Both the position numbers and the translations under genes were made by a program. Under the pieces are notes generated by a model. That model saw nothing but the letters and a program-made list of their open reading frames with translations, was not told the DNA's origin and ran no database searches. Below are positions 40,153 through 64,000 of a stretch of DNA of 64,000 nt, piece after piece. This DNA is from Candidatus Omnitrophota bacterium (GTDB lineage: Bacteria; Omnitrophota; Gorgyraeia; Zapsychrales; JAKLDJ01). The stretch lies in the NCBI GenBank assembly GCA_022703585.1, contig JAKLDJ010000001.1, positions 118,891-182,890 on the forward strand, read 5' to 3'. Position 1 is the first letter of the stretch; each line of letters begins with the position of its first letter.

Positions 40153-40186
40153 GGGGGCTTGGCGGCCATCCGGCCGCCAAGCCCCC
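40153..40186 (-). terminator. perfect 15-bp hairpin (GGGGGCTTGGCGGCC atcc GGCCGCCAAGCCCCC), likely the terminator of the giant-gene/PilZ transcription unit
   Basis: An exact inverted repeat 36 nt after the stop of the second PilZ gene, with A/T-rich flanks on both sides. Translating it is also what creates the two mirror-image 'MGAWRP' ORFs in the track. Confidence 0.6.
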
Positions 40187-40221
40187 ATGAAATTTTCCCA
40201 ACAAAAACAGTTTAACCTAAC

Positions 40222-40551
40222 CTACTGGCAAAACTTAAAAATCCTCTGGGTGTCCATAAAATCAACTTTGTCAAACTTCATGCCCACATCCCATGTTTGC
40301 GGGTTGGCGGGCCGGCTCCAAGCCACACGTCCGCTTAAATTCAGCGGTTCATGACCGTCGGGAAGCTCCACCAGCAAATCAATCTTGTCGTTTAAGAGAA
40401 ATCTCTCCTTAGTGGAGACTTTCGCGCCTGTCGCGGAGACATCTCTTAAGAAAACATTGGTACCGAAATCTGCCCGTTCGTCTTTAAACTTGACCGGGAA
40501 CCTAGCCATGAAACGATCGAAGACACGGCGATCATCAATGCCGATAACCAT
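40222..40551 (-). CDS. PilZ domain protein (c-di-GMP receptor)
   Basis: 109 aa with the RxxxR motif (RRVFDRF) and DxSxxG motif (DVSATGAKV). Confidence 0.75.
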   Translation of the reverse strand: MVIGIDDRRVFDRFMARFPVKFKDERADFGTNVFLRDVSATGAKVSTKERFLLNDKIDLLVELPDGHEPLNLSGRVAWSRPANPQTWDVGMKFDKVDFMDTQRIFKFCQ

Positions 40552-40661: not shown

Positions 40662-41036
40662 TTAAAAGGCTTTTTCAATTGCGGAGCACGAACCGCTGGC
40701 GACATCGGCAAACGTCATCCCCACCCGGTAAAAATCCGAACTGGGCAGCTGGCGGACCCATCGCACTTTTCCGACGGCTAAGATCGGCTCGCTGTCGGGT
40801 GTTAACGCCAATTCTATCGGCATCTTGGTATTGACCGGAATAAATTTGGTCGATAAAAATCCCACCCCGCCGCGACTGATGTCTAAAGTCAGACTGCTAT
40901 CGAAAGCGTTACCTTTCTTGCACACAACCGGGACCCGGCAGTCGAACCGGGTCGATTTTCTTTTGTCAGAATCTTGCACTTTGTTCCTCCAATTGAAGTA
41001 TAGCACCATTTTTTCCGAAGAAAGCGTTTTTTTCAA
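40662..41036 (-). CDS. PilZ domain protein (c-di-GMP receptor)
   Basis: 124 aa with RxxxR (KRKSTRF) and DxSxxG (DISRGGVGF). Confidence 0.75.
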   Translation of the reverse strand: MKKTLSSEKMVLYFNWRNKVQDSDKRKSTRFDCRVPVVCKKGNAFDSSLTLDISRGGVGFLSTKFIPVNTKMPIELALTPDSEPILAVGKVRWVRQLPSSDFYRVGMTFADVASGSCSAIEKAF

Positions 41037-41146: not shown

Positions 41147-44100
41147 TTACCCGCATTCCGCCTCTTGCGGAGAAAGTTCCGAATCCGGATTTTCCTTATC
41201 CGGTAATCCCTCCTCTTGAAACAAAACCCCGGCCTTGACCAACGCCCGGCGAAGAGGCTTAAACTTCTCGGTTGAAATAACTTCCTCAAAACGCGCGTTC
41301 AAAACTTGGTCACCCCTGATCATATCCATAACAACCCGCGCTCCGTCGGGAACGATCAAAACACAATCCAATACCACTTTAAGCGCGTCTTCTTGCCGGC
41401 TGCCCTGGCCGCATAACATCGCTCTGGCATGCCGCGGTAAAGCATTCCATTGGCGAATCAATTGATTCAATAGCTGCGACCCTGCGTCAGTATCGCGGAA
41501 ATTGTCGATGGCCTCACCCAGCAAAAGATGATTAAGAAATACCCTCGCGATTGATAAAGTTTTCTCAATAGGCATAAAGGAAATTAATATGACAAGCTCC
41601 TTTAATGCCCTGGGCTTATTGTGCGCAGGCTCTCCTTTTGAATAATAAATCCATAAGTATTGCGCAAATAATATCTGGTATTCGCGGGTCGCCGGCGAAG
41701 AGCTCCTGGCATCAAGAAGCAATGCTTTTCCGGTCCGCTGCTCGATGGCCGTAATTCGTTCCTGCGAATCGGTATGATGGCCAAAACTGCGCCGGGATAT
41801 AGACCTTCCTTCACGCAAACGTTCTTTCAGCCGCTCGACAATAGAATCTTCATCGCTGGATTCATCCTGGCGGGGAAGCAACCGGATTTTTTCTTTTCTT
41901 TCGATATCCATAGCGTGCTTATACAGGGCGTCGTCGGGAAATGGCCCGTTTTGAAGGCCCTGCGGATAATTCGCTTCTCGCCCCAGGGCTTCTTTTCTCA
42001 CGGCCAGCTGATAAATAACCGAATCCCTGTCGGGATAAAGATCAAGGCGGCCGGCCAGAAGCGTAAACCTAAGCTGGCGCCCAAGCGTGTAAATTCTCGC
42101 CGCTAAATTCACTCCCGCCGAACCTTCGTTTTTCATGGCGGCGTTGGTATTGCGCAATCCTTTTTCAAGGCGTTGACGGAGTTCTTCTTTGGTGCGGACT
42201 AACGAACGGCGGCGGCAACCGGGGACAACAAAATCCGACAATCGCTCGATATCCCGCCGCACGTTGTAGAGCCTGCCGTAACCGTCCAGTAATTTGCTTA
42301 AGATAATCCATTCTAAGGGGCCGAGCTTATAGTATTCAACGATTTCATCCAAACAGCATAGCTTCTGACCCACCGGTAAATTCCACCATTCCTTGGTCCT
42401 TAAACGGCAATCCAATCGCGCCAAGGCCTTTTGAATCGGCGCCCGCAGGGCCGTGCCTTCATCCAGCGCTTCATCTATATCGCCGGCGTCTCTTATTCTA
42501 AAGAATGCCATCCTTCGGGAAAATTGCAGGCGCAAGAGTTCGTCTTTGGGATTCTCCTCTACCATTTCGGCCAAGGCGACATCACTGTCGTCAAAGGGAT
42601 CTGCATATAATTTTGTTTCGGGGCCAAATGCCTGGTCCATACCATTCAGGGTTGCCTTGATGGCTACCTCAGTGATGGATATGGCCTGCTTACTGATACC
42701 CCAGAGATTACCGACACGTTCCTGACTCCAGGGTTGCCCGTCTTTTGTGCCTATGCCATGGCGCAGACCAACGATCAATCTCCTCCGAGGATCTTCTAAA
42801 GAGGCGATATGCCGGCGGGCAAGTTTGATTTTTCCGTTGACCTCTTGTTCCCTGTCCAATCTTTCTTCCGCATCCTCAAAGGTACGCTGAGGGATACATT
42901 CTCCTTCTTCCCGGTCATCATTCGAACCGCGCTTAGCGTCTAAAGAAACGACGGCTGTTTCCTTTTCCGCCTTACTTTTTCCGTTGTAATGTATTTTATT
43001 TCGATATTGAGAGATCTCACCTTTCATCCACCATTCCCAATAAGTCAAAAGTCCGTTTTCGAAACTTAAGTCAAATTTGCCTAATGCCCCGAGAAGGGCC
43101 AGGCGCCCGATAGCCTTCATCTCAACCCTGGAGATGCCTGCCCGCAGCAAGTCGGACCCATGCCGATTAAACATCTCCCCCACAAATCCTATATTATTTT
43201 TAACAATATAATCGCATATACGCCCCCGAAGGTTATTGTCTCCCAGCTGAAAAGCCCAAATGAGAATCCGCTCCTCGCTGCGGGAAAGATAGCAGCCCGG
43301 CTTAACCGGCCGGGCCATGATGCGCCTGGCCCTGGCGATGGCCTCGTCTTTGGGGCTTCCCTTGACCATCCCCACCATCACAATCGGCAAAAACATCAGC
43401 GGCCCGGCCTCGACGAAGGCCATGAAAATGGCCGAGGCGGGCCCGAGGGCAGAGGGAACAAAACATCCTAAATTCTGATCCTTCAGCTGGGCTTCCTGAT
43501 CTTTAGGCCGCTGCACCATCATGAAGGAGTACTCTCTCGAAATAAATATTCCCGGCCAGGTGGCGGCTTTTTTCATCTCCCCAAGCTCAAAACCGTTCAT
43601 TGCCAAAACGTTCAATGGAAAATCAATTTCGTCCCCTAAGAGAAAACCTTGCTTCCCAAATGATTGAGCAATCTTATTAGCCATCTTTCCAAAAACGCAA
43701 TCAGGCGCGATAGCAGAAAAAAAGTTCACAGAGTAACCCATGGAAATAATAAATCCTCTAACAATATTTTCGGGTATTTGCGAATCTTCGAACCCGAAGG
43801 GAATTAGTTGAAGATTATCTTTATTTCCGGGGCTCTTGGCTTCAAGGGTCGAAAACGCGGCGTCCATAATTTCTTTGCAGTAATACGACAAGGCTTGGGG
43901 TGAAAAAACCGGGTCAAAGGCGATCACACGCACCCCACGGCTGGCCAGTTCTATCTCGACAAAAAGATTGTCACCAGAACCGATTGACATGACCATATCG
44001 CCCTCCCTGATGGGAAGCTGGTCAACGATAGCCTTCGCGGTCGCAAAAAACGGTCCGTTGAGATCTTTGAGCGCCGCTAAAACCTCTCTCTTTCTTTCCG

Positions 44101-47100
44101 CAATACCTCGCTGCTGGGGCGAATAGGAAAAAATGTCACCTTCGAAGAAAGACCCCCGTCCCCGCATCATCCCCGCCACCGGCAACAACATCAGCGGCCC
44201 GAGGGCGAAGGGCAGCAGGAAGCCGTAGAGATCGTCTTCATCATCGTCATTCGATGAGGCCTCGGAATCAGTTGCCTCTGCCTCTTGCACATCTTCTCCG
44301 TGTTTTTTAACATCATCCCAATAAATTCTCTGCTCCATATTTCCCTTGCGTAACTTAAAATTATGAAACGTCTGCGCATTAATCAATCGGGCCTCTTGGT
44401 AACTGACAGCAATCGCCGAATCAGAACCCTTTTCTTGGATAACCGCGCTGGGGAAAAGCGCGCGCACATAAGAAATAAAATCTTGGTTATCCTGATCCTT
44501 ATTGACGAATACGGCTATTCTTGCCTTCTCAATCTTAAAATCTTTTAATTTCTCAACAACGCCGTCAAAATCCTGCCTTTCCTGGCCCGCCCTGATCCTT
44601 TGGATAACCAGATCTTGCGCATAATCTTCTTCCTCCCACTCGCCGCGCACGGCAACGACGATATCGCTTCCTAAATTCTCCGAAAGGATAATACTGTTAT
44701 CGCGAAAACTTGTACCGATTCTTAATAGAATATTGCTTCCTACATAATAAAGAGTTTTGCCCTTCCATTCTGACGTCCAGCCATCATCGATAGAATACCC
44801 GGCACCTGGAGCGACCACATTAACTCGGGAATATCTTCCTTTCTTCTCCTCAATTTTATGTTTTTTAACCGACTTTGAGCCGCCTTGATTCACAGCCCCA
44901 AAGAAAGCAACAACAAAATCAAGAAAATCTGCCAATCGTAAGGCCCGTATGGCATCGGATTTTCTTTTCTTTAATCCTGACCGTTCTGAAGAATATATCT
45001 GAACGAGTCTTTCTGTTTCTTCAACTGCATGTTTTTGAAACTCCAAGGCACGTACTTCTTCGCGAAGCCTTTCCCTTGTTGATCCGAGCTCTTCCTTTCT
45101 TCTCTCGCGTTCTTCATCGTCGGGATCATTACTGTTTACCCCGTTCCGTAAGCGACGAAACTCCTCATCCGCTTCTTCTATCTGTTGCATTTTTATCGCG
45201 ATCTTTCTTTCATATTCTTTTAATTGCTTTCTAAGAAAAGAGGGGCTGGAAGCAATCCTCAATCTATGCCTGATCGTTTCCATGCGTTTTGCGGTCGCTT
45301 CATGCTCCTTTTCTTTTCCCTTGGGAACATTGTAGCGGTACTTTTCATATTGCTTATCTAATGCAGTATAAAGGTCGCTTAATCTCTTAAGAAGGGTAAC
45401 ATTTCTCGAATCATATTCATCCGCCCACCGGATAACATCTTCGCTCTCAAAATCGGCGATGATACAGAAGTCCGGATCGCCCACGAAACCACTCATTCTC
45501 GTAATCCGCGCATGCATTTTCTTAAAGATGACCGGGATCGCGATCGTAACCGCCCGCTGGAGTTGCGCGCGAGTGAGCCGTCTAAATTCTTTGCGTACCT
45601 CCTGAACTTTTTCCGCGAAACCGTCTCGATCTTCATCACCCCTTAAATGCTGTTCATCCGTTAATAGAACAATGGCCTTCAGCATGTCAGTTTCTTGCTC
45701 AGAAAATTTCATGTTAGGCAATATTTTATTCCCAGAACGCCATCTTATCTGGCCGGAAAGACTGGGGATTATCGAGCAGATCGAAGCGAAGAAAAGCAGA
45801 TACCCGTCTTCTTCCTTAACCCGCCCATGTTTAATATCTTCCGTGAATCTAAAGACCGTTGTCATGGCTAAATCCAACTTTGAGAAAACATTAACGCGCC
45901 GATGAAAAAATGAATCAGACTCTTCTCTGTGCAGGGGGCTGAGTTCGTGAATCACAAAAGACAATAAACCACACCCTTTAAGGATATCGACCGCTTCCAC
46001 CAACCGTATCTTTGAATCCTTTTTCGTCCCACCCTTAACAAGCCGCTTAAAGAATTTGAGAAATTCATCGCTTCGGGCCACCCGGGCTTTTGTTCTGGTG
46101 GATAGACGATGGACGTAGGTCATGGCCTCGATATAATCCTCATCTTCCCTGAATCTTCTTTCAAGCATATTCACCACTTCCGAGGCTTCGCAATCCATGA
46201 CCCTGGCGTGTCTATCGCAGGGAAAATTGAACCGGTAACTGTATTCATTTCTCAATATCTGTAGCGTCCGATTTTCTCTTAATCTTTTTTTGATCTCTTC
46301 TAAACCAAGACTATTGCGCTCATTCACAAAGTCAATAAGCGGGGTATAAACATAATTGTAATAGCCCTCTAATAACCCGGCCGCGCCGGTTTGATAATGC
46401 AAGGTTTGCAGGGCCACTTCGATTTCCAAAATTAACCGGATCATTTCCGGCGTGCCGGCGCTATCCAATGATTCAATCTCGTCCGCAGCCGCCAGAATAG
46501 CACGTTTGGCCTCGTACTCGATTCTTTGAACATACATTAATTCTTTAACGATGGCAGTCACCGTCTTGGTATTTAAGAAAACGCGTCTTTTATAGGCATA
46601 GGAAGGAATCGGCTCTTCAAAGGCAAGCGCAAGAGAAACATGGATATCTTTTTTTGTTGCCGTCGGGGATAATTGATAATCAATCTCTTGAATAACGGTC
46701 CGTCCTTGAGCAACCTGGTTGACACCATTACGGTCCCGGTCAGCCGCTTCGCCGCCCCGCCAGCCATAATGCATAATGGCGGTCGTCACCGCGCGTGTCG
46801 TATAGCGGGCATCGGAATGGTCGTTTTCACGAGTCCCGCGGTATCCGGTATCAAGAACGGAAAAGCGCGGGACAATAAACCCGTTAGAAAGAATGGATAA
46901 ATGGGGGGCGATTATTTCATCCTCGCCGTGAAGGGCTAAATTCATGTCATCCAGTATCGCTTCTAGTTTTTCCTGCGATATTTCCAGATCAAATTCTTCG
47001 AGGTATTCTTTTAATTCACCAACCAAAAGAGGCTCCGTCAATTCTTCCATGTGCAGCCCCTCAAGCTTCTCCGACAAAGGAACAAGCCGGTGCCCGGTGA

Positions 47101-56100: not shown

Positions 56101-59100
56101 TTTTTTTGCCCCGGTAGGACCCTAAAATATTTTCGATAAGAATCACAGTGCCGTGTTCAACAACCGGTTCGCCGGCTACAGACCCCTCACTCTCAATATC
56201 ATCGATCTTTCTCGCATACGAACCTGCGGTCGTGCCGTCCGGTCCGCGATGAAATTCCGCGATCACACACCGATACGATTCGCGATAAGTCTCCCCTAAA
56301 GCCGCGCCGTTTAATCCTTTTACCCTGTTGGTATGCAATCCCGCGACAGCCTGTCGAATGGCAATCGGATTTCCATACTCATCCCTAAAACCCGTCCCGG
56401 CATCGAAAAGCAAAAACTGAAAGGCATACTTTTCTCCAAAATCTCCAAACCTCTTAACCCGGCGAACTAACAGGGCTCCCCGGCCGCCCCCGTGCTGTTG
56501 AAGATTCTCTAGAGAAGCGCTCATGGCCCGTTTACTTGAGGACATCGCAAAATAATTCGCCTCAGGAAAGACGCTCCGAGAAAACGCCACATTGACAATC
56601 GTCCAGAAGAAGTCTGATAACTCGTGCGCATTACCGGTTTTTCCGGCAAAACCCAGCTCCCAAAGCTGCTGCTGTATGCCAAAAGAAAAATCTTCGCCGG
56701 CTTCTTTTCCCAAAACTTCCTGCCAAACCATTGGCAGAATTTTCTGAACGTCCGGATCTCCGTCAAAAACTGCCCCCATTGATAGGTCTTCCGTTATCAC
56801 CTCCCCGCTTCTGGCCTGGCTTCGCCCAAGGGCTTCGCCGAGGCGAGTGGGCCGAGGCTCGCCCGCCTCGGCTTTTGCCTTCGTCGAGGCCGGGTCTTTC
56901 CGACTATCGCCGGAAAGACGGCCCAGCATAAACAAGACAGGCAGGATAAAAACCGATAAACCGGGAATCAAGGCCCACAACTCCAGCTGTTCCGGCTGAG
57001 CGCCCCGGCCTGGCTCCGGTTGAACGCCCCGGCTTTGTTCCTGCCAATGGCTATTGTCAATCACCATATCAAAGACGGGATAATCGCGCAGCATGCTGCC
57101 GATGGACGGCATCGACAGCTCATCGACAACCTCCGTTATTCTTACACCAGGATTATCGAGGCGGATATTCTCCTGGCGTGTTTTTGGGTCAGCGTACACG
57201 AGCACTTTGACGTCAAAGACAAGCGGAGTATATTCTTCCAAAAACAGCGCGCTCCACCCCTCGACAACAATCATGCGTACGGTGCTGTTTCTTTGCAATT
57301 GCTCAATCTGCCCGGTGATCCTTAACATCGGCTCTTCGAGAGTAACGCTCCGGGAATCGGCATGGAGAACAACAACCCCATCCAACTGCTGCTCCAGAAG
57401 TCCGGCTATGTGCGTCTTACCCGTCGCCGTCTTTCCTGTCAACGCCACATACAGAGGCCGGTTAGCCCGAGACCTTTTGGAAAGATTTTTCATGTGTCTG
57501 AGAGCCACTTCCACTGAAATAGGTTTCCGGGAAAACTTCCGCCACATCGCCATAAGGCCCGCGCGGAATGCCGCAAAATCATCGCCTTTCGTTATCTCCA
57601 AAATCCTGTCAAGTTTAGAGGTCAACAAATACCGTTCATTCACCGGGGTGGCATCGATAAGCTTTCCGATGAGATTCTGCGCAAATCCCGGTTCCTGCTG
57701 GCGCAGGCGGATCAATTCGCGGACAAGAAACCTGACATTAAGCGTTCCTAAATCTTTGTCAAAAGGCGTTAAAGTATTCAGCGCGCAGATAATCACTTTA
57801 TACAAGTAAGGCCCGTACTCCCGGGGCAGCGCGTTAACCGATTCCGCGATAGCGGGAATATCTTTAGGATCCTGGGCATAATAGACACGCTCATAAACTA
57901 ATTCACTGATCGGCAATACCCGATTTCCGGATGTATTGATCATTCCCGACAGCGGCAGAAAGATAAGCCCGGGCAGGAAACAACCGAGCCTTTCTGCGCC
58001 GGGATCTTTGACAATACTCTGGCTATCGCGCCTCATGATGGCGACGGGGACACTGATTGAATCCGACGCCGCATGGATGTAGCGCGAGCCGCTTCGAGTT
58101 GTCGCCTTGACGGCAAATAACCCTCCGTTATCCAAATAATAATAAGGTGTCAGCCGGGCCGGGCCTTCCATGGTACGGTAGGCGCATGATGCCGCGTCAT
58201 AATAAGTCCACGGCATCTTCCGCGGCTTGAGGGCTTCCTGGATAACATATGTTTCCTTATCTCCCAGGGCCTGGCGGATCAACCGCCCTACTTTGTCATG
58301 AGATTCTCCATCCAAAAACCACAAGTTCATGCCCCACGATTGGTTGGTGGGCTTAAGCACAAACTGCCGTTGTCTTCTTTTAAGATTCTTTATCTCTTCC
58401 CACTGCCGAACACCCAGCTCTTTTAATTCCTCGGGTATGTACGCGTTATCCACCACCCACGTTTTGGGTATAAGCCCCATCAAGATCCGGTAATGTTCCC
58501 TACCCAATTTTTGTTCAAACCAGGGATTGTATTCCGGAGAGTGAAACAGCGCCAAGGGGATCTTGCCTTCGCAAAAAGCGCTTAAGCCGGGCACTAAGGT
58601 GATACGCCCTTCCTTCGCGAGGCGGATTATTTCTTCGACAGAGGAATTACTGTGGCGGTCTTTCACATAAAAACAGCGGTAAACGGTTAATCCGGATTCC
58701 TGCCGGAGCAACCGGATGAATCCGTCATCCGTCTGCGGCGGAGCCCTGGTATCGTCGAGTAAAAAGGCTGTCGCGTTAATGCCGACGGACTGCAGCTCTT
58801 GGGTAAAATATTGAATCTGCCCGAGGAATTTTCTTGTCCGTTCATTGGCGGCAAAAATAATCTTTTTATCTTGAAGTGAGCCGCTGTCTCCCGCACTCAA
58901 GACTCTTTGGGCAAAACTCTTAAGAAAATCCTCTCCGGTGAGGCCCAAAACCTCAAAGCCGCTTTCCTGATAGATCTTCTGGAGCAGATACACCAGGCCC
59001 AGGCCGTAAAAAGAAGTTTCAAGCTCAACCATCCCCATGCCGTTTTCGGTCATAACCAAATCCGGCCGGATAAAGATATTCCCCGCCCTATTGGCATCAT

Positions 59101-62100
59101 CCAGCAGGCCCTTGTGATCAAGCCGAACATGGCACTCCGACGACCAAATGTAACGATACCACCGTGAATCAACCGGCAAAAGAGTCCGGTCGTGAACAAG
59201 GTCCAGGCATGCCGCAAAAAATTCCCTCAATGCCTGGCAGGCATGCTCCAGGAGAGCAGCCTCTTGTTGGCTGATATATAACGGCTCCGGACTGACACGA
59301 AACGGCACGTTTTCGACAGAAATAATTTCGCCGCTTCTGGAAGGATAAATCCATCCCTCCGGCCGGTGAGAGGCCTCTTGATCCATCGCGGCCAAAACCG
59401 GATCGTTTTCTTTGATCCCCGCAAGCGAGAATGGAACCGAAAACAGAAACATTAACGACCCGGGCAGAATAAAACAACCCACCGAATGGTCAGTTGACAC
59501 TTCATCCCCGTCGTCTTTCCTGCCGGAATGCCGGCGGCTTAAAACATAATAATCAAATTGACGATACCCGGGCATCACATCTAAAACGCCCATTATGGTC
59601 GCGCGCAATTTCATCATAATCAATTTTAGCGCGGCGCCGTTAGAGAACATTTCTGACATGGCCTGCAGCGGCATCGCCGCGTATCCGACAATCGGCAAGC
59701 CGGACACCACAACCCAATACCAGCGAAAGACCACATCGCGATTGCGCGCCGCTGACAGCAGGGTAACGACAAACCTGAAGATACCGGGAATAAAGCATCC
59801 AAAGATTGCCAGCCTGACCGGCGCGGACCAGTGAAAGCTATGCTCGATAAAAATCATCCGGTACAGGTCACCCGTCGCGTATGCGCTCAACGCCCCCGCG
59901 ATCACATCGCCGGGGAATTTAAAAACGGTGTGCCAGAAAAATACCAGCGAATAGGTCAGCCATTCTTTGGTTTTTGTGGCGGCGTGAAAACGTTCGTATT
60001 CCGCGCGCGGCATCTTGCCGGCATCGTGCATTTTCTCAACGTCTTCCAAAAGCCAGGTATTGATTTTAAGAATTGTTCCCGCTTTAAAATCTCCCCACGA
60101 GCGCGAACGATAGCTGTTTTTAATCAGCGGCCAAAGCAGGCGGCCGACATGCCGCCATGTTTGCGTGTTAAAAATAAGCGCGCGGCTTATCTTGTCGACA
60201 AGCGGAATTCCGTCGAGAGTGGCAAGCAGGACATACAACGGCGTATGCCGTTTCAGACGCTGTGCCGTCGCGGGTGAAATATCTTCACTCGCCAACCAAT
60301 AGCGAATCATCGTATCTTTAATATAAAAGTTTTTAGAGACACGGCCGGTTATCCGCCCCCAGAAATCAAGCCGGCTGGCATCGTAGATGCCGCACAGTTC
60401 TTCATAGAAAGCAAGGCGGGCACCCATCCGTTCTGCCTCTTCGCCGCGCATGTGGTCGCCGATATAGTCCGACAGCGCTGCGGGGTCAAGCCGGTCAAAC
60501 ATCACCCGGTAGTTTCCGGCTCGAAACGCCCTTAAAATCGCCGCCGCGTGATAGGGATAGAAAAAGACCATAATCGGAATTGCCGGCGTGCGGTCGACCC
60601 AGACAAATTCCCCCGAATGCCGCCGCATAATATTCTTATAGGTCTGCGCCGGGCCGTCGAAGCGGTCATCAATCTGATAGAGATGCTCGTTAAACCCGGC
60701 CTTTTCCGCCAGCAGGCGAAAACGCCGAAGGTTTTCTTCGTACATCTTGCGGTTTGCCTGGCCGCTAAAACCATTGCCGCCGTCAATCCATTCCACCACT
60801 TCACCGTAGGCGCGATGGCTGACGCTAAAGAATATCGCCCGCGAACGCGCCACCACCGGCGCGCCGACCTCATGCTCGGCAACATCGGCGAGCATGTCGC
60901 CCACGACCATATTGAGCAGCACCGCTTCCTTAATATAGCGATAGGGAAAACGCGATTGATAGGCTACGGCGTGGGAAAGATTTCTTAAAAATTCTTTGAT
61001 GGCGCCGCTTAGGCCCGACAAGGCATACACCCGTAGCGCCACCGGAGTACCGGTTTTAAGGTCAACCGCCCTGTAGACGCTGGCGCCAAGGCCGCTACCC
61101 GCGAAACTTTCAATCCGGTATCGCCGTTTTTCTTTTCTTAAAATATCGCGAAGGTTAAAGCCTGAGGCATGATGAAACGCGTAAGAAAGCCGCTCCTCAT
61201 CAATGACTTCGGTATCCAGTGCGACGGTTTCCCCGCGGACAAATAAACGCTCATCCGTATCTTGCATGCTGACTTCCGCGTCCACAGACTCTTTGATTGC
61301 TTGACTTCGCCGGCGTTCGGCTAAACCCGCGATTAAACCTTGCAACTCTTTTACGTCAGACGTTACCCCCAGCACCGATTCGTCATTAACCCAATATTCC
61401 ACATCTTCCTGGTGGGTTGTGTAGAATACGACCGGGATATTTATTTTTGCCTTCATCATCTCCTGAAGTAAACAGACACCACAACCATCAGGCATATCAA
61501 AATCAAGAACGACCAGGCCAATTCGCTGTATGCCTTTTTCAATCTTCTGCCATGCCTCTTGACAGCCATTGGCATGAACCACTGTATAGCCTTGGGCCGT
61601 CAATATCCTATCCAAATGTCTGTGCACATCCTCGGAATCATCGACAACCAATATCTGTAAATGATCTTCAAAAGACGCCGTCATCCCCGTCCGGCAAAGC
61701 CTTCTTGAGGCTTTGCCGAGATCTCGGCGTTCCGACCCCTCGTCGGAACGCCGGACCATCCCCACAACAGGTAAGCCCACTAGCGGCAGGAAGATAAGCC
61801 CGGGCAGGAAACAGCCCAACGATTCAGGTTCACATCCAAAGGCACGGTAGTAGTGCTCCATCTCTTTGTCGGACACCTTGGTATCAAGCTTGTAATCGGC
61901 GCGCGCGGCAGCCAAAAGCTCCGCCAGGAATTGTCGTCGTTCTGCTTTGGGAATTTTGGTCACGCGGCTGATGTCACGGTTAGACAGCGCGTAAATCATC
62001 GCAAGCATTCTTTCCCGTTTGTGTTTGGTGAGGGTGCGGATCATGGTGCGCAGGTCTTTAACTTTGATCATCAGAAGAACAGTATCGCAGGCGATAAATG

Positions 62101-64000
62101 CGAGGGAACGTTCGGAGAGAAAAACGGTTTTATAGCAACGGCCATGCCAATAGGTCGGCGCGCCTCTGACAAAATTATTGCGCGCTGCCCAGTCACGGTA
62201 AACCTTATTAAATACCGCCTCATCATTGGCAAAACCTTTTACATTCCCCATATGCGCCTGGTGCGCAAGCCGTGTATAACCAACCATAAAACGGCTTACC
62301 TGCAATGAATCATTAATAATGGCGATGGCGATATCCAGGCTATCCAGGGCTTCCTGCCGTGCCTTCTCATCGCTTTTGGATAACGGGGCGATTCCTAATA
62401 ATAATCCTTTTTTAAGATGCCGGTCCACGATGCGCTGCACCATATCCTGGGCGTTTAAGATGCGGTTTCTGATGCCCATAAAATCCGGCTCGTTTAAAAA
62501 CGGCCAGGTAAATACATGGCGTAATCCCGCCCTGGCTTCGCCGGGACGAGGCTCGCCGTTTTCCCGGCGGCCCGCGCGATTTTCTGTGCCGATGGCCTCC
62601 GTGAACCGGTTCTCAGAAATATCCTTTCGAATCTTTGTCATTCTTGTCAACACCCTCCGGAACCGGGTCTGGGAAATTTCGCGCAGTTGAAAACGCAGAT
62701 GTTCCAAATAGGCAATCTCGCCGGCGATCTGTCCTAAGCGCACCTCGATTGACGGTATGCCCGCCGAGATACAGGCTAAGGCCGGCTTGGCTCTTTGCAC
62801 CCTAATAAAGTTGAGAGCCATTTCAAGTTCTCTGCGGCAATCCTGCTTTTCCTCCACGCGCACCCCTTCTAAGGAAATGAGCAGGGCTGCGATATCGCGC
62901 TCGATACTGCCGGTATCAAGCGGCGCGGCCGCAGCCGCCCGGGCGTGGAATCGTAAATGATTTTCAATATGCCGCAGCGTTACTAAGAATTCCTTCATCG
63001 CCTTGTGGTCGGCGGCCAGAGAGGCAAAAATCTTATCCAGAATTCTGAACCAGCGGTACAGCGTCTGGGTCTGGGGCCGCTGCTCGAGCACGGTTGCACC
63101 GGCCTTCCTGACGTAGCGGCCCATCAATACGGTGATTTTTCCGTCCGGCTCTTGGTTAATTTTTGTTTTTGATTTTCTGCGTTGTAAGCGTTCCTGCAGC
63201 GCTTGCTTTCGCTGGTGTGCCAGTTTTCGGGAAATGCCGTCTAAGATCCAGACCGCGGCCATTTCGTTGCCGGCATCAATAAAGGCAATAATCTCCTCTG
63301 CGCGGGCAATGGCGCTGCTACGAATATTTCTTTTAAGCGCGCCGATTTGCCGCCGGTCCGGCAATGCGCCGGTGTAGCGCTGGTAGGCCAAGCTCAAAAG
63401 GCGGCTGTGCATATCCCGTACCTTGGTGTGCTTTCGCTTAAGGATGGCCTCTTGCGGCAAAATCGTTTGCCGGTACGCCGAGCGGTCCGTGCGCCGCGGT
63501 TTCTTTCCGTCTTCGTCTAACGCTCCCAAAAGCGGCAGAAACATTAAAAACGGCCCGGTCCCGACGAGGCCTAAAAGATTAAAGAGGGCCGAGGCGGACA
63601 GGAACGCGAGCGGCGATAGGAACATAAGGGCCCGAAGCGTTTCAACTTCTTTCCAGTCATCGTCCTCCTTCGCCTCATCCCTCGCCTCATCCCAAGCCTC
63701 CTCCCGGCCCGGAAGAATGCTGCCTCTATAGTCAACATCTTTTTCCGTCGGAAAGATTTTTTCAGGTTGGACAGCGCCTGACCAGCAAGGATCAAAAGGG
63801 TTGGAAAGCGGCCACCATGCTATAGGTAGCTCTTGGCCTTTACTGAAACGCTTCCAGTCATCTGCCACAACAATAAAGATTAAAGGAGTTTTATCGGATT
63901 GCACTGAATCCGGTTGAAAGCCTATCCAGTCGCCTATCATCATGTCAAACCAAGGCTCCCACCAAAGGTGTTTGACGCTGTTTCGCCGCTTGAGAACCTC
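41147..64000 (-). CDS. giant multidomain membrane protein (at least 7,617 aa; N-terminus lies beyond the window)
   Basis: A single stop-free minus-strand frame from 64000 down to the TGA at 41147. The first ATG is at 63943, but the same frame stays open upstream to the window edge (…EVLKRRNSVKHLWWEPWFD MMIGD…). Several catalytic and signalling domains are recognisable and are listed as separate features. Confidence 0.85.
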   Translation of the reverse strand, partial: EVLKRRNSVKHLWWEPWFDMMIGDWIGFQPDSVQSDKTPLIFIVVADDWKRFSKGQELPIAWWPLSNPFDPCWSGAVQPEKIFPTEKDVDYRGSILPGREEAWDEARDEAKEDDDWKEVETLRALMFLSPLAFLSASALFNLLGLVGTGPFLMFLPLLGALDEDGKKPRRTDRSAYRQTILPQEAILKRKHTKVRDMHSRLLSLAYQRYTGALPDRRQIGALKRNIRSSAIARAEEIIAFIDAGNEMAAVWILDGISRKLAHQRKQALQERLQRRKSKTKINQEPDGKITVLMGRYVRKAGATVLEQRPQTQTLYRWFRILDKIFASLAADHKAMKEFLVTLRHIENHLRFHARAAAAAPLDTGSIERDIAALLISLEGVRVEEKQDCRRELEMALNFIRVQRAKPALACISAGIPSIEVRLGQIAGEIAYLEHLRFQLREISQTRFRRVLTRMTKIRKDISENRFTEAIGTENRAGRRENGEPRPGEARAGLRHVFTWPFLNEPDFMGIRNRILNAQDMVQRIVDRHLKKGLLLGIAPLSKSDEKARQEALDSLDIAIAIINDSLQVSRFMVGYTRLAHQAHMGNVKGFANDEAVFNKVYRDWAARNNFVRGAPTYWHGRCYKTVFLSERSLAFIACDTVLLMIKVKDLRTMIRTLTKHKRERMLAMIYALSNRDISRVTKIPKAERRQFLAELLAAARADYKLDTKVSDKEMEHYYRAFGCEPESLGCFLPGLIFLPLVGLPVVGMVRRSDEGSERRDLGKASRRLCRTGMTASFEDHLQILVVDDSEDVHRHLDRILTAQGYTVVHANGCQEAWQKIEKGIQRIGLVVLDFDMPDGCGVCLLQEMMKAKINIPVVFYTTHQEDVEYWVNDESVLGVTSDVKELQGLIAGLAERRRSQAIKESVDAEVSMQDTDERLFVRGETVALDTEVIDEERLSYAFHHASGFNLRDILRKEKRRYRIESFAGSGLGASVYRAVDLKTGTPVALRVYALSGLSGAIKEFLRNLSHAVAYQSRFPYRYIKEAVLLNMVVGDMLADVAEHEVGAPVVARSRAIFFSVSHRAYGEVVEWIDGGNGFSGQANRKMYEENLRRFRLLAEKAGFNEHLYQIDDRFDGPAQTYKNIMRRHSGEFVWVDRTPAIPIMVFFYPYHAAAILRAFRAGNYRVMFDRLDPAALSDYIGDHMRGEEAERMGARLAFYEELCGIYDASRLDFWGRITGRVSKNFYIKDTMIRYWLASEDISPATAQRLKRHTPLYVLLATLDGIPLVDKISRALIFNTQTWRHVGRLLWPLIKNSYRSRSWGDFKAGTILKINTWLLEDVEKMHDAGKMPRAEYERFHAATKTKEWLTYSLVFFWHTVFKFPGDVIAGALSAYATGDLYRMIFIEHSFHWSAPVRLAIFGCFIPGIFRFVVTLLSAARNRDVVFRWYWVVVSGLPIVGYAAMPLQAMSEMFSNGAALKLIMMKLRATIMGVLDVMPGYRQFDYYVLSRRHSGRKDDGDEVSTDHSVGCFILPGSLMFLFSVPFSLAGIKENDPVLAAMDQEASHRPEGWIYPSRSGEIISVENVPFRVSPEPLYISQQEAALLEHACQALREFFAACLDLVHDRTLLPVDSRWYRYIWSSECHVRLDHKGLLDDANRAGNIFIRPDLVMTENGMGMVELETSFYGLGLVYLLQKIYQESGFEVLGLTGEDFLKSFAQRVLSAGDSGSLQDKKIIFAANERTRKFLGQIQYFTQELQSVGINATAFLLDDTRAPPQTDDGFIRLLRQESGLTVYRCFYVKDRHSNSSVEEIIRLAKEGRITLVPGLSAFCEGKIPLALFHSPEYNPWFEQKLGREHYRILMGLIPKTWVVDNAYIPEELKELGVRQWEEIKNLKRRQRQFVLKPTNQSWGMNLWFLDGESHDKVGRLIRQALGDKETYVIQEALKPRKMPWTYYDAASCAYRTMEGPARLTPYYYLDNGGLFAVKATTRSGSRYIHAASDSISVPVAIMRRDSQSIVKDPGAERLGCFLPGLIFLPLSGMINTSGNRVLPISELVYERVYYAQDPKDIPAIAESVNALPREYGPYLYKVIICALNTLTPFDKDLGTLNVRFLVRELIRLRQQEPGFAQNLIGKLIDATPVNERYLLTSKLDRILEITKGDDFAAFRAGLMAMWRKFSRKPISVEVALRHMKNLSKRSRANRPLYVALTGKTATGKTHIAGLLEQQLDGVVVLHADSRSVTLEEPMLRITGQIEQLQRNSTVRMIVVEGWSALFLEEYTPLVFDVKVLVYADPKTRQENIRLDNPGVRITEVVDELSMPSIGSMLRDYPVFDMVIDNSHWQEQSRGVQPEPGRGAQPEQLELWALIPGLSVFILPVLFMLGRLSGDSRKDPASTKAKAEAGEPRPTRLGEALGRSQARSGEVITEDLSMGAVFDGDPDVQKILPMVWQEVLGKEAGEDFSFGIQQQLWELGFAGKTGNAHELSDFFWTIVNVAFSRSVFPEANYFAMSSSKRAMSASLENLQQHGGGRGALLVRRVKRFGDFGEKYAFQFLLFDAGTGFRDEYGNPIAIRQAVAGLHTNRVKGLNGAALGETYRESYRCVIAEFHRGPDGTTAGSYARKIDDIESEGSVAGEPVVEHGTVILIENILGSYRGKKMDWLPSPALLGYSKALCAILRPEGKIKRVFRLVKRVFRHSQDTNSSNPRPESNEPDGRLLSVAPAAWVWAILGAGALVYLFLCSRHKETLPSICKPSEMVRILLEIIVAAMILSVALAIIFRWNKKNGVNHGSSAVSQKDDEKSSSRFSFLRYRPISGRTLTSLLIAGILTFVGFVRHSSYGSLKCLFEDTALKCLLRQPLNHDNVQYFKILATPSVVSALYLFHMASRNVFNKMGGKKMNNLILELFQDRKRLVVFISSVWCLTEIKKYLSSVLRIETTIPLGPTESQAVNIIVLLASGIIAFWGMKYLSFKPLFNKRGKGTDPAVTPVCPPAVPRHVPLLSGTDQSVKGGHTQDGAGSVPNEISMDAARRYLAWLGQASKIDIRFPIQVLADTQVSEHMTPGEIMGILRERNMYCRSMDEEKLQGVVARIVYLQTHIAPLIVRYWQQRYPGENIVSVSVYGSWPYNDNPSDLDIDIIVEGDAYALRSIDREYLEKHFSSLDIPVKDISFVVFGLENIEQGKGQGTEIEGGRVHTNVLETTTALLYVRNIPAFGRDFIPLENYRQHLNAIAADFLKAALQRIKKIDLKNEESDGKRMRKVIARLHSASVLLEMVDGRARGYSRTLLNLRNTPEQEAISESQVTSLWLKMFALLRQRVSQQDMYSGGTNPANSYQENDQPGGGLLSVVPLVWALAILGAGASVYLFLSRRYKEILPLIYKHGEELHKNGFISDYYWKSRKAMKEEMRLLFIMAGIILGVFLTELPDAKSCISNPLVFMITISVAAPLSLTGLHFIGHIVPAIIFNGWNKLKKIKYATDIQRIIILLVPAFIHAMVAVPGWVIASKNRENDVVFTAGFAFFAFHFIALSYCLLRSDGPAIKTILDERKNKESRRSGKRYPCPKNDQPDGRLLSVVPLVWALAILGAGALAYLFLQRQHKKVLPPIRNFIVSRAPPLATFKLLRYRVQSRVPRISTGSVGRRFQDETFNLAVAGGKRFAPSDEISSRLRRDGLVVWIHAAAASVLNNSRKPGTVSTLLRRVIAGIFIVLMSSVISVVPAWSAPQETASQQTQRSIPTKQAAYAKIRELAQAFEYSPQIANELVALAPALDIPRLLETQDEMERLELLVAAIRNSFSPHEDSSLGWDLSEVLRLRKSNCLGYVQLFYIYGRAVGLHINPIYVFTSNEFNMEHAATMADIGLLSYIVDLSVTESAYISPGFNFHSVYRNPQGYLGSLEMLFPGGKDGGLIFKLQSDELPSFYTTIRQGNAESIVSWIYTNRGDTYFRNGDLEQALLTFTRALEINPYYEIAWSGLGIVYLRMGELEAAEECFRTALAKNPEYARPHYDLGLMLENAGDYEGACAHFLKVLELRPDDTAAMNWAGVCYLERGMYDEARPYLLNAIAIDPDPMYPYFHLGRISFAQDKPEEALAYFYLAQERDAGVIDELPLELQGPLSAAMDTTGVNTLQKQIESMAYGILGREYGFAKNDELALGYFAASIEVDPENAGAFFELGLFYLERGEYDRAIENYLEAIRLLPEPWEAYFDIGRAYFSQDKKEEAFVYFYIAYQKNNQVFDVLTPEFQGKIRALRDDPVAQAQLLERRAQLEEGLRAFALPGFFETALFLSSLLGLLLASVPMAGMVKEGDAIRPPGNRGVRMDLVLNRLLAGGWGLWGNMTQEDFQREVNEEFHSGYEPCPELQSIFGAPKKTRVQFYQRKESPTAGPLHFIWAGDDYSSVKIYLSSQELVDRLIKTFRNHAKEALELIVFHERKEKKLGSHMQAWVLTLKENLSMALALEELFDQIQSQDDFIDTRIELIPSRDERQQREALVEMIMSILSGYFKERAVVINHGSVGRETDMAGRFDIDMTVQFADDFDRDEENARLKIYLDTALARQGYFIDHVKGYLPAHGKQMFTFLLKDRQGIPVTRVEISMSESMKTYPEMFNAQIAQIRENFGEKGLQEVLSDILVMKYILQKIVNSYKKVHGGLRGIGAEQLIIQSGGFDESGWQVKTPGSLYKAMALIYFYGYNTTGRRIRPLSEVREKFKICDLEGSNCLDTLNEWSWRRLVHAAKIYVEGKRFNQSFAHPDELAYALKDAFDYNQKAVRVCELRGPRDIHQILAQGQGYDFERIGRDGYYVYFYTEESFSRFEQSGLLQFITAVLSDDDREKPVPLIESTSGYVMRDGIMDRRKIKEEALKRARKIKLNKKDDDHEVIKELGNIYVYVDERIFEFFKMKQSDIEYAIQGGSNDCLNIDHQGVFYRGLREREKKCGSIVIALADESGLFIMPGGSDGLVIVPPQIKEFDPKDALRLMSKLIANQLFDMAGRYYEEDGRTFELESVEDLIIPFHDSDSAGSILPKYFTLKRILGARHPITVKMDERINKGFYPGKDRTGSSRVKEEFPERVAKLRKAYVLASGTKSDIEQAYGILIEVLNEFIDARETWSRSLWLDYWSRPAMYVLFAYAKEFPERAVLNHFSRWLDWHHSCMYPEEKAGHLKKEWNYKLLQFSLKIGQSMTDEELLTVLEYMLDSNKFYHIEEAHFTLLDVLARQNRGQLIDILFSMLLSKQLTRNWINRGDSTKNIEAALGHLLTEDDFERLVELHENAEEILKQRRMAAKAEAKNKKSDPSKQKGEIGEENEGQDEDLDEKLDENRDEDLDEKPGEGEGVYGYKSGLRGIMVLIGGKKALAFLSQGLDNPITEYGVFRTEYEHDLEALLKREIMQGNLELIEFIRRRITTPLTAHIERLAAKKEAGDCKEGERPGRDDDLIKAAMAHMATYLWLTVDVDLYKKLSSLDEEGCLDNGHDKERFAGIQNKEVRRFYALRLAKMIEVATTDKALKNVLFAFCSLHGESPESDEQGLWFKTNDDWIDYESYGKTLRVLGDLMAELAEESRDRKEREELFVVALKMHSKALDNFYYRIPSQVSDAIKDLRQYRGFVIRKANQGDMRAIRVLLTDRSFMKELVGEGRLILNAEALARAFLDHHFNRILSSYSDMVKLFEKRVTGHRLVPLSEKLEGLHMEELTEPLLVGELKEYLEEFDLEISQEKLEAILDDMNLALHGEDEIIAPHLSILSNGFIVPRFSVLDTGYRGTRENDHSDARYTTRAVTTAIMHYGWRGGEAADRDRNGVNQVAQGRTVIQEIDYQLSPTATKKDIHVSLALAFEEPIPSYAYKRRVFLNTKTVTAIVKELMYVQRIEYEAKRAILAAADEIESLDSAGTPEMIRLILEIEVALQTLHYQTGAAGLLEGYYNYVYTPLIDFVNERNSLGLEEIKKRLRENRTLQILRNEYSYRFNFPCDRHARVMDCEASEVVNMLERRFREDEDYIEAMTYVHRLSTRTKARVARSDEFLKFFKRLVKGGTKKDSKIRLVEAVDILKGCGLLSFVIHELSPLHREESDSFFHRRVNVFSKLDLAMTTVFRFTEDIKHGRVKEEDGYLLFFASICSIIPSLSGQIRWRSGNKILPNMKFSEQETDMLKAIVLLTDEQHLRGDEDRDGFAEKVQEVRKEFRRLTRAQLQRAVTIAIPVIFKKMHARITRMSGFVGDPDFCIIADFESEDVIRWADEYDSRNVTLLKRLSDLYTALDKQYEKYRYNVPKGKEKEHEATAKRMETIRHRLRIASSPSFLRKQLKEYERKIAIKMQQIEEADEEFRRLRNGVNSNDPDDEERERRKEELGSTRERLREEVRALEFQKHAVEETERLVQIYSSERSGLKKRKSDAIRALRLADFLDFVVAFFGAVNQGGSKSVKKHKIEEKKGRYSRVNVVAPGAGYSIDDGWTSEWKGKTLYYVGSNILLRIGTSFRDNSIILSENLGSDIVVAVRGEWEEEDYAQDLVIQRIRAGQERQDFDGVVEKLKDFKIEKARIAVFVNKDQDNQDFISYVRALFPSAVIQEKGSDSAIAVSYQEARLINAQTFHNFKLRKGNMEQRIYWDDVKKHGEDVQEAEATDSEASSNDDDEDDLYGFLLPFALGPLMLLPVAGMMRGRGSFFEGDIFSYSPQQRGIAERKREVLAALKDLNGPFFATAKAIVDQLPIREGDMVMSIGSGDNLFVEIELASRGVRVIAFDPVFSPQALSYYCKEIMDAAFSTLEAKSPGNKDNLQLIPFGFEDSQIPENIVRGFIISMGYSVNFFSAIAPDCVFGKMANKIAQSFGKQGFLLGDEIDFPLNVLAMNGFELGEMKKAATWPGIFISREYSFMMVQRPKDQEAQLKDQNLGCFVPSALGPASAIFMAFVEAGPLMFLPIVMVGMVKGSPKDEAIARARRIMARPVKPGCYLSRSEERILIWAFQLGDNNLRGRICDYIVKNNIGFVGEMFNRHGSDLLRAGISRVEMKAIGRLALLGALGKFDLSFENGLLTYWEWWMKGEISQYRNKIHYNGKSKAEKETAVVSLDAKRGSNDDREEGECIPQRTFEDAEERLDREQEVNGKIKLARRHIASLEDPRRRLIVGLRHGIGTKDGQPWSQERVGNLWGISKQAISITEVAIKATLNGMDQAFGPETKLYADPFDDSDVALAEMVEENPKDELLRLQFSRRMAFFRIRDAGDIDEALDEGTALRAPIQKALARLDCRLRTKEWWNLPVGQKLCCLDEIVEYYKLGPLEWIILSKLLDGYGRLYNVRRDIERLSDFVVPGCRRRSLVRTKEELRQRLEKGLRNTNAAMKNEGSAGVNLAARIYTLGRQLRFTLLAGRLDLYPDRDSVIYQLAVRKEALGREANYPQGLQNGPFPDDALYKHAMDIERKEKIRLLPRQDESSDEDSIVERLKERLREGRSISRRSFGHHTDSQERITAIEQRTGKALLLDARSSSPATREYQILFAQYLWIYYSKGEPAHNKPRALKELVILISFMPIEKTLSIARVFLNHLLLGEAIDNFRDTDAGSQLLNQLIRQWNALPRHARAMLCGQGSRQEDALKVVLDCVLIVPDGARVVMDMIRGDQVLNARFEEVISTEKFKPLRRALVKAGVLFQEEGLPDKENPDSELSPQEAECG
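42650..42760 (-). other. sigma70-region-4/LuxR-like helix-turn-helix near the C-terminus of the giant protein
   Basis: PWSQERVGNLWGISKQAISITEVAIKATL resembles the r4 HTH (ER.V..L..G.S...I....I...RV.QI...AL). Confidence 0.3.
50200..50620 (-). other. minimal Pol-beta-superfamily nucleotidyltransferase module 2 in the giant protein
   Basis: VVINHGSVGRETDMAGRFDIDMTVQFADD. Confidence 0.5.
51400..52330 (-). other. tetratricopeptide (TPR) repeat array in the giant protein
   Basis: About 8 consecutive 34-aa repeats with the W-LG-Y…A…F…AL…P consensus (e.g. AWSGLGIVYLRMGELEAAEECFRTALAKNPEYA). Confidence 0.7.
52380..52800 (-). other. transglutaminase-like cysteine-protease core in the giant protein
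   Basis: KSNCLGYVQLFYIYGRAVGLHINPIYV … EHAATMA matches the C-x-G-[FY]-x-x-L-F-x-x-x-x-R-A-x-G-[IL] Cys block followed by the His block of transglutaminase-like peptidases. Confidence 0.5.
53301..53399 (-). repeat. intragenic ~100-bp repeat, copy 3
   Basis: Encodes NDQPDGRLLSVVPLVWALAILGAGALAYLFL. Confidence 0.7.
53981..54077 (-). repeat. intragenic ~100-bp repeat, copy 2
   Basis: About 90% identical to copy 3; encodes NDQPGGGLLSVVPLVWALAILGAGASVYLFL. Confidence 0.7.
54350..54800 (-). other. minimal Pol-beta-superfamily nucleotidyltransferase module 1 in the giant protein
   Basis: hG[GS]...D.D motif: VSVYGSWPYNDNPSDLDIDIIVEGD. Confidence 0.5.
55853..55950 (-). repeat. intragenic ~100-bp repeat, copy 1 (encodes PDGRLLSVAPAAWVWAILGAGALVYLFL TM module)
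   Basis: DNA-level similarity to copies at 53981-54077 and 53301-53399 (shared kaagaaaagatatrcaagcgcacccgcgccgagaat…ctcaaaagcctgcc). Each copy encodes the same hydrophobic module. Confidence 0.7.
57040..57520 (-). other. P-loop nucleoside/nucleotide-kinase-like module in the giant protein
   Basis: Walker A LYVALTGKTATGKTHIAGLL, followed by a Walker-B-like hhhhD (VVVLHAD) and a lid region. Confidence 0.5.
58000..59360 (-). other. circularly permuted ATP-grasp / glutathionylspermidine-synthase-like amidoligase module in the giant protein
   Basis: Blocks PLYISQQEAALLEHACQALREFF … RPDLVMTENGMGMVELETSFYGLGLVYLL … FVLKPTNQSWGMNLWFLDG … YVIQEAL follow the order of the CP-ATP-grasp family. Confidence 0.5.
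61290..61660 (-). other. CheY-like response-regulator receiver domain embedded in the giant protein
   Basis: LQILVVDDSEDVHRHLDRILTAQGYTVVHANGCQEAWQKI…GLVVLDFDMPDGCGVCLL…IPVVFYTTH carries the phospho-acceptor Asp in the conserved position. Confidence 0.7.

Follow-up and report, generated by a model that had tools for sequence, protein, structure and literature searches.

The 64,000-nucleotide stretch of Candidatus Omnitrophota contig JAKLDJ010000001.1 (hereafter the window) carries the end of a giant open reading frame (ORF) in which a short hydrophobic motif recurs. The question raised by this locus is what the motif marks in the giant protein and how it is placed relative to the membrane. 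The motif is inter-module punctuation in the C-terminal part of the giant protein, with its copies located between modules and not inside domains. The favored explanation of its geometry, with roughly an even chance of being correct, is a membrane-dipping hairpin or re-entrant linker that tethers cytoplasmic modules.

All motif copies are carried by a single minus-strand ORF that continues past the window end. The original prediction placed the start of this ORF at a listed ATG (position 63943), from which the amino-acid numbering used here begins. The 19 codons between this ATG and base 64000 contain no stop, so the ORF is already open on entering the window, and the proposed start does not hold.

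41147..64000, minus strand: last 7,617 codons of the giant ORF, which extends past the window end; 85,803-residue product in three identical assemblies

The three public assemblies were located via the GH94 gene (37574-40000) just downstream of the giant ORF. They are 100% identical to the window over 22.4 kb, and in each the adjacent gene encodes a product of 85,803 residues.

ENA ERZ761563 NODE_2, 1.17 Mb
JGI 3300010429 Ga0116241_10000010
GCA_035453785.1 DAOTDT010000001.1, 1.6 Mb

The longest ORF of West-Roberts et al. 2023 (10.1101/2023.11.21.568195) originates from a wastewater Omnitrophota genome and comprises 257,412 bp and 85,804 residues. The window ORF is the tail (the last ~9%) of this published gene, and the motif analysis covers the C-terminal 7.6 of its 85.8 thousand residues. 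As is typical of the giant class, the gene exceeds 30,000 residues in one ORF of an Omnitrophota genome, and approximately 20 hydrophobic segments occur in the 7.6 thousand residues with receiver, TPR, P-loop and sigma-like domains between them. The giant protein is a member of the 'multi-enzyme' class, and its ORF looks as if formerly separate genes had been joined in series.

Numerous predicted transmembrane (TM) helices have been described in such giants (West-Roberts et al. 2023; Seymour et al. 2023; 2026 preprint 10.64898/2026.06.07.730766). The published helices are counted by TMHMM or DeepTMHMM and are spaced at one every few hundred to a thousand residues. 'TM-only' giants are regarded in the 2026 preprint as cytoplasmic domains anchored at the inner membrane. 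West-Roberts et al. suspected cleavage but considered the cleavage points unknown and the gene thus not divisible for analysis. No mention of a conserved sequence motif, a link to module borders or an equivalent of the SSPA peptide presented below was found in these three accounts.

The motif consists of nine Pro/Gly-rich hydrophobic segments in one reading frame of the minus strand, with the consensus [L]GCF-x-PG … [LM]FLP … G-M-V-[KR]. The eight copies named by the original prediction, which had estimated about eight, are all present on this strand and in this frame, and a ninth (m3) had been missed.

m1, 63521..63637, minus strand: residues 103-141; long form with a 26-residue first arm, a TGP turn and FLMFLPLLGA, then DEDGKKPRR; directly upstream of module M1
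m2, 61748..61819, minus strand: residues 709-732; LGCFLPGLIFLPLVGLPVVGMVRR; canonical short form
m3, 59756..59812, minus strand: residues 1378-1396; LAIFGCFIPGIF / LAIFGCFIPGIFRFVVTLL; contains GCFIPG; ninth copy
m4, 59411..59482, minus strand: residues 1488-1511; VGCFILPGSLMFLFSVPFSLAGIK
m5, 57935..57988, minus strand: residues 1986-2003; LGCFLPGLIFLPLSGMIN; DNA core in common with m2
m6, 56918..56980, minus strand: residues 2322-2342; LWALIPGLSVFILPVLFMLGR; without Cys
m7, 51182..51268, minus strand: residues 4226-4254; LPGFFETALFLSSLLGLLLASVPMAGMVK; after the TPR module
m8, 44162..44227, minus strand: residues 6573-6594; YGFLLPFALGPLMLLPVAGMMR; preceded by an acidic run
m9, 43361..43474, minus strand: residues 6824-6861; long form NLGCFVPSALGPASAIFMAFVEAGPLMFLPIVMVGMVK; two arms around an AGP turn

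The motif starts with a short, hydrophobic first arm that often reads LGCF. This arm is 20-26 residues long in m1 and m9 and is cut to 5-9 residues in m2-m6 and m8. The first arm ends in a tight turn, with a PG or GP dipeptide in all nine cores. The second arm (10-25 residues) contains an internal Pro ([LM]FLP[LIV]) and terminates in G-[MA]-[VM], which is followed by Lys or Arg in five copies (m2, m4, m7, m8 and m9). The N-terminal flank is usually acidic (net charge -8 to +1), and the C-terminal flank is mildly basic. The overall length ranges from 18 to 39 residues (39 in m1 and 37 in m9), and Cys is absent from four of the nine copies.

The motif is far more frequent than chance would allow. 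GCF is observed five times in the giant ORF versus 0.21 expected from composition, and GCF.{1,2}P[GS] five times versus 0.002 expected. An unbiased k-mer scan places GCF and LMFL among the protein's most enriched 3-mers and 4-mers. Pro and Gly together make up a fraction of 0.226 of the motif cores, compared with 0.107 of the protein's 11 remaining hydrophobic segments (Mann-Whitney p = 1e-4). GCF..P[GS] and [LMI][MIL]FLP[LIV] are absent from all other six-frame ORFs of the window, and the 4-residue pattern G[MI][VM][KR] has three stray matches there. A motif-profile search of 5.8 billion proteins gave no match at E<=10, although the motif is too short for a decisive result. The back-translated motif GGNTGYTTYNTNCCCGGNYTNATHTTY yielded six matches in JGI metagenome contigs, a set without this contig, and all six are chance matches in short unrelated ORFs.

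At the DNA level, m2 and m5 share a 32-nucleotide core with one mismatch. The near-identical core of ~35 nucleotides reported for two copies is therefore real. Nine of the 11 codons are identical in this core (P = 1.3e-3 given the amino acids). The other copies use differing synonymous codons, and thus the peptide, not the DNA, is conserved overall. A DNA-level element or recombination scar is ruled out as a general cause, since the codons of GCF and SSPA vary and the common DNA is confined to m2 and m5. Internal translation initiation at the Met of GMV, which reads GGG-ATG in five copies, is unsupported because the sequence upstream contains no Shine-Dalgarno-like element at a suitable distance.

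The segments between the motif copies define what the motif separates. The following segments of the giant protein are recognizable.

61829..63481, minus strand: module M1, residues 155-705 ('YRQTILP…LYRAFG'), ~550 residues, bounded by m1 and m2
61403..61654, minus strand: response-regulator receiver, residues 764-847 (E 1e-13), starting 34 residues after m2; cytoplasmic marker
minus strand, about residues 2158-2258: P-loop kinase-like domain (module M5, between m5 and m6), weak matches with E about 1e-3
52925-52987, minus strand: signal-anchor-like segment, residues 3653-3673 (RR, hydrophobic stretch, PAWS/AWS-AP), just before the transglutaminase-like and TPR module
minus strand, residues 3733-4200: transglutaminase-like and TPR module, upstream of m7
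42647..43111, minus strand: sigma-70/ECF-like domain, residues 6945-7099, after m9; TIGR02937 at E 3e-8 with 33.5 bits, below the curated cut-off of 42.9; Sigma70_r4 at E 0.024; cytoplasmic marker

No motif copy lies within a Pfam or NCBIfam domain envelope, and all envelopes fall between copies, in agreement with the proposed beads-on-a-string placement among soluble modules. Homologues of M1 provide a direct view of the borders. They were found in P0001, in 17 representative proteins and at 16 loci of Omnitrophota genomes, among them that of Candidatus Velamenicoccus archaeovorus LiM; the 16 loci were drawn from a genome collection without the source genome of the window. A first protein search with 2,400 residues yielded P0001 alone, probably owing to an overfull list of candidates. 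The homologue alignments start at residues 127-173 or later and end at residues 695-710, and none of them crosses m1 or m2. The modules that flank M1 vary from genome to genome. Moreover, M1 occurs as a stand-alone gene of 553-605 residues (P0012; locus L022, 2665-4482), whose product stops two residues past the AFG motif and whose flanking genes in L022 are on the opposite strand. The alignments that stop at the motif and the stand-alone M1 together indicate that the motif marks the site of a former stop codon, intergenic spacer and start codon. Homologue searches with modules M4 and M5 found none, and the homologue-based border evidence is therefore limited to m1 and m2.

M1 has no Pfam or NCBIfam match, and its AlphaFold2 (AF2) model (pLDDT 75) is an all-α bundle with one β-hairpin and no significant fold match in the PDB (best E 0.07). 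M11 is methyltransferase-like by an S-adenosylmethionine-binding-like motif seen by eye; its single-sequence AF2 model has a pLDDT of 42 and is unusable. PDB sequence searches of M4, M5 and M11 returned nothing significant.

The M1 homologues also reveal what occupies the same borders in other Omnitrophota lineages, namely hydrophobic elements or soluble peptides. Hydrophobic elements of 40-56 residues are found at M1 borders and elsewhere in L012/P0003, L016, L019 and L021/P0007. Each consists of a TM helix, a '(H/Y)PATAGP' turn and a short second arm followed by K/R/D, and the second arm resembles the window motif (AGPLGIILAFPLLFGAVKD). A strict second-arm pattern, [x][GAL]P…P…G.[VM][KRDQ], matches only m1, m8, m9 and two P0007/L021 linkers in ~100 thousand residues of giant-protein sequence, pairing AGPLMFLPIVMVGMVK of the window protein with AGPLGIILAFPLLFGAVK of P0007/L021. 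Both P0007/L021 linkers lie directly upstream of M1, and the M1 of this relative is only 32% identical. The second-arm form [AG]P-hydrophobic-P-hydrophobic-G-x-V-[KR], which characterizes the hairpin linkers (…SLIALLGLVAL…HPATAGP-LGIILAFPLLFGAVKD), is present at a border in the window protein, and a full first arm of ~20-25 residues, as in the 40-56-residue linkers, is found in m1 and m9 but is reduced in m2-m6 and m8. From these resemblances, the window motif looks like a shortened form of the relatives' hairpins.

In Archaeovorin-type giants, the soluble tetrapeptide SSPA (wider form [AG]SSP[ALV]) takes this position. SSPA is found at M1 borders in P0001, L013, L015, L017, L018 (V. archaeovorus), L023/P0009 and L026, 3 residues before M1 and 5-10 residues after it, and is far more frequent than expected.

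P0001: SSPA, 9 observed, 0.065 expected
L013: SSPA, 17 observed, 0.12 expected
V. archaeovorus LiM (L018; NZ_CP019384.1 118127-139785): SSPA, 14 observed, 0.12 expected (p = 2e-24), per 7.2 thousand residues
P0009: SSP, 26 observed, 1.5 expected

The Ser residues of SSPA are encoded by both AGC and TCN codons, which points to selection on the peptide. In V. archaeovorus, all 21 SSP sites fall outside the Pfam envelopes (30% coverage, P = 5e-4), and one SSP-delimited segment each is taken up by the GGDEF, HAD, GNAT, aldose epimerase, LOG, HD and receiver domains. An SSP-bounded module is found at different positions in L018 and L013. SSPA thus looks like a general inter-module punctuation of Archaeovorin-type giants. 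No description of this punctuation was found in the three accounts of Omnitrophota giants cited above, although a mention in Kizina et al. 2022 (V. archaeovorus proteome) is possible.

Other lineages display further variants. In L020/P0006 (Omnitrophota metagenome-assembled genome STD1_205), DNGG (LDNGG) occurs six times versus 0.02 expected in 1.5 thousand residues, with two of these in the roughly 40 residues that precede M1. In P0010, a 2,859-residue Omnitrophota fragment, LGC occurs six times versus 0.3 expected and often precedes a short hydrophobic stretch and a patch of basic residues (for example, ALGCALAGAWLLARPRSTDRRK); this element may be related to the LGCF start of the motif. Recognizable punctuation is missing from both M1 borders in L011 and from the C-terminal border in L012.

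In the favored explanation, the motif would form a helical hairpin or a re-entrant loop that dips into the cytoplasmic membrane and leaves both ends in the cytoplasm. Successive enzyme and regulator modules would therefore be tethered side by side on the inner membrane face without a change of compartment. In form, it would be an abridged two-helix hairpin linker of the kind present in other Omnitrophota giants, and in the architecture it would hold the position of the soluble SSPA linker. A partner (an insertase, protease or modifying enzyme) might also recognize the motif, as suggested by the conserved residues. The copies may have spread inside the gene by duplication or gene conversion, given the codons common to m2 and m5.

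Three sets of observations favor this arrangement. First, the chain most likely stays on one side of the membrane, because the receiver follows m2, the sigma-70-like domain follows m9, and the P-loop kinase-like domain lies between m5 and m6. In addition, M1 of P0001 and L018 has cytoplasmic enzymes as neighbors, without an intervening TM segment. Second, the charge polarity is the same in all copies, whereas helices that cross alternately should alternate in polarity, which argues for a non-crossing geometry. Third, the PG or GP turn in every core and the high Pro+Gly content are consistent with a hairpin or re-entrant loop, as are the relatives' versions, which are long enough for true two-helix hairpins. 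The tethering of cytoplasmic modules also agrees with the view of TM-only giants in the 2026 preprint. The original prediction had proposed hairpins that pass successive modules across the membrane; its hairpin part fits best, whereas the crossing is unsupported because the neighboring modules are of cytoplasmic types.

Several observations weigh against tethering by non-crossing hairpins. Six copies span 18-22 residues, which would suffice for a single-pass helix but not for a complete two-helix hairpin. The parity between the receiver and the sigma-like domain can also be satisfied with every hydrophobic segment being single-pass. The cytoplasmic assignment of M5 is based on the weak P-loop matches and that of M11 on the by-eye motif. 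The uniform asymmetry of an acidic N-side and a basic C-side also fits an N-out/C-in segment or a sorting signal, and m7 may truly be a helix that brings the chain back inside once the transglutaminase/TPR module has been exported. The homologue-based border evidence comes from two of the nine copies, and hydrophobicity is not required for the role of the joint because relatives have SSPA there.

The strongest rival to tethering is processing or sorting of a polyprotein, which is possible but rather unlikely. A membrane enzyme (S2P/M50, CPBP, rhomboid, LspA-like or exosortase-like) would cut or lipidate the chain at the motif, for example at LG-CF or after GMV. Module-sized proteins that are still membrane-anchored would result, and SSPA and DNGG would be soluble-protease sites in other lineages. 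Short lineage-specific peptides are kept at the joints across species whose modules are only 30-45% identical, and the codons at the joint sites have changed synonymously and even in a non-synonymous-class manner. Conservation of the joint peptides despite codon change would, in the case of processing, point to recognition by a trans-acting factor rather than to a mere spacer. Intramembrane proteases favor helix-breaking Pro and Gly in hydrophobic substrates, and the motif cores carry such residues. M50-like membrane modules with HExxH are embedded in related giants (PF02163 in P0001; by eye in P0007 and P0009). The order of signature, hydrophobic stretch and basic patch, with an acidic N-flank, is that of a sorting signal, and the stand-alone M1 protein has the same ends as the embedded module. 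Cleavage at sites not yet located is also what West-Roberts et al. suspected. However, the 41 kb adjoining the giant gene contain no protease or sortase gene, and no other window ORF has the motif. Furthermore, no curated sorting-signal hidden Markov model matched, and Cys is lacking in the four copies noted above.

A wider version of the same idea, which is unlikely, would make Omnitrophota giant genes bacterial polyproteins in general, with the punctuation peptides (GCF.PG…FLP…GMV[KR], SSPA and DNGG) as cut or sorting sites that co-evolve with their protease. If this were true, the 257-kb ORF would be cut into dozens of enzyme-sized, partly membrane-tethered proteins, with a coupled evolution of site and protease like that seen in RNA viruses.

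The two remaining rivals are less likely. Ordinary single-pass TM helices, through which the chain threads back and forth and places alternate modules outside, would owe their similarity to common descent only; this explanation is quite improbable. Published TMHMM and DeepTMHMM counts treat such segments in this way, and many regions of giant proteins are extracellular in the published view. The Kyte-Doolittle means of the six helix-length cores (1.5-2.3) and the possibly even receiver-to-sigma-like parity are compatible with it. Export of the transglutaminase/TPR module, followed by its return inside through m7, is plausible because the signal-anchor-like segment precedes the module, and this module may indeed be exported. 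However, single-pass helices would place M5 and the methyltransferase-like M11 in the extracellular space, and M1 and the receiver on opposite sides, yet the M1 of relatives shares its compartment with LOG, HD, GNAT and receiver domains. The constant acidic-N/basic-C polarity also contradicts alternating helices, and the cores contain twice as much Pro+Gly as the other TM segments of the protein.

A functionless linker that was copied by intragenic duplication or gene conversion as modules were joined, where any spacer would suffice, is very unlikely: the m2/m5 DNA core does exceed what the peptide requires and the L011 and L012 borders do lack punctuation, yet the seven other copies have diverged synonymously with GCF, PG, FLP and GMV kept, the second arm is common to a relative with a distant M1, and SSPA is kept in many species despite codon change.

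The many TM segments of the published 85,804-residue giant are already known. The conserved signature and its strict coincidence with module borders appear to be new, as do its kinship with the hairpin linkers of other lineages and its positional equivalence to SSPA and DNGG. These features bear on the question of whether the largest predicted proteins exist as single multi-megadalton chains or as cut pieces. The punctuation motifs offer exact, testable borders for splitting giant ORFs in structure prediction and annotation, and supply candidate cutting points where the field considers them lacking. They can guide the identification of termini in proteomics and be correlated with embedded protease domains. 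Giant genes assembled from once-independent genes by conserved joints also bear on the origin and growth of such genes, and in an ultra-small predatory cell, hydrophobic joints would be a possible mechanism to keep tens of cytoplasmic enzymes in line along the inner membrane.

A second recurrent membrane segment, N[DE]xP[DG]G-LLSV.P..W..AILGAGA..YLFL..R.K..LP, is present in the giant protein in three near-identical copies and is unrelated to the GCF motif.

55829..55939, minus strand: copy 1, residues 2669-2705
53954-54064, minus strand: copy 2, residues ~3294-3330
53279-53389, minus strand: copy 3, residues ~3519-3555

Copies 1 and 2 are 55% identical in amino acids and 70% identical in nucleotides. 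This segment resembles an ordinary TM helix preceded by a conserved lead-in.

The following genes are located downstream of the giant gene.

40222-40551 and 40662-41036, minus strand: two small PilZ-domain genes, immediately past the giant gene and ahead of the GH94 cellobiose-phosphorylase-like gene
33882-37340, minus strand: 1,152-residue protein with CBM_4_9 and a C-terminal Hint/pretoxin-HINT domain (residues ~1005-1136)

The PilZ–PilZ–GH94 arrangement is identical across the three public assemblies. Between the PilZ gene and GH94, a perfect 16-nucleotide G+C-rich inverted repeat with a 4-nucleotide loop (TGGGGGCTTGGCGGCC / GGCCGCCAAGCCCCCA; 40152-40187) is terminator-like, and spurious ORFs on both strands of its arms read the same peptide start, MGAWRP. 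The domain composition of the CBM_4_9/Hint protein, beside a sugar ABC transporter, suggests a self-cleaving polymorphic-toxin-like or surface protein. Nearly all long ORFs of the window (1-64000) are on the minus strand, and the GC skew is negative throughout. This strand bias agrees with the published remark that the genes of each replichore lie almost entirely on one strand.

The GCF.PG start locally resembles the N-terminus of Hedgehog and intein Hint domains (G-CFPG). A Hint domain is rejected because no Hint fold of ~130-150 residues follows the motif and no Hint-family Pfam match occurs in the giant ORF; the Pfam test works here, as PT-HINT is detected in the neighboring CBM_4_9 protein. 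The letters LGC likewise recall the bacterial lipobox (L-[AS]-[GA]-C). The residues before Cys in the five GCF copies (SLG, IFG, SVG, RLG and NLG) do not fit at positions -3 and -2, the hydrophobic stretch is on the wrong side, downstream of Cys, and the upstream flank is acidic or hydrophilic.

The tripartite C-terminal signals (PEP-CTERM/exosortase, GlyGly-CTERM/rhombosortase, MYXO-CTERM, PGF-CTERM/archaeosortase and LPXTG/sortase) have a similar layout of signature, here GCF.PG and often with Cys, hydrophobic stretch and basic patch. Such signals sit at the extreme C-terminus, whereas all nine motif copies are internal and the ORF ends in …SPQEAECG* without the motif; the earlier suggestion of a C-terminal sorting signal is therefore unsupported. 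Unlike in these systems, no signal peptide precedes each module. The nine motif peptides gave no NCBIfam match at E<=10 and only a chance Pfam match (DUF6136, E 0.27), and the original prediction was thus right to set the motif apart from PEP-CTERM, GlyGly-CTERM, LPXTG and the lipobox. No cognate sorting enzyme was found among the neighbors in the 64-kb window.

Viral polyprotein sites (3C, NIa and NS3) are likewise short, lineage-specific motifs exactly at the module borders of a long ORF. They are cleaved by a cognate protease, whereas the joint described here is a membrane segment. The oleosin 'proline knot', caveolin and reticulon-type hairpins share with the motif a hydrophobic character, a Pro/Gly turn and, on the predicted geometry, soluble parts that remain in one compartment. 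These anchors occur once per protein and have no sequence kinship with the motif, which forms repeated joints, and the likeness is one of principle. The closest known system is the set of TM segments in Omnitrophota giants: the protein is the same, and the motif falls within this described class. To these segments, published as helix counts, the present analysis adds a conserved signature and a link to module borders.

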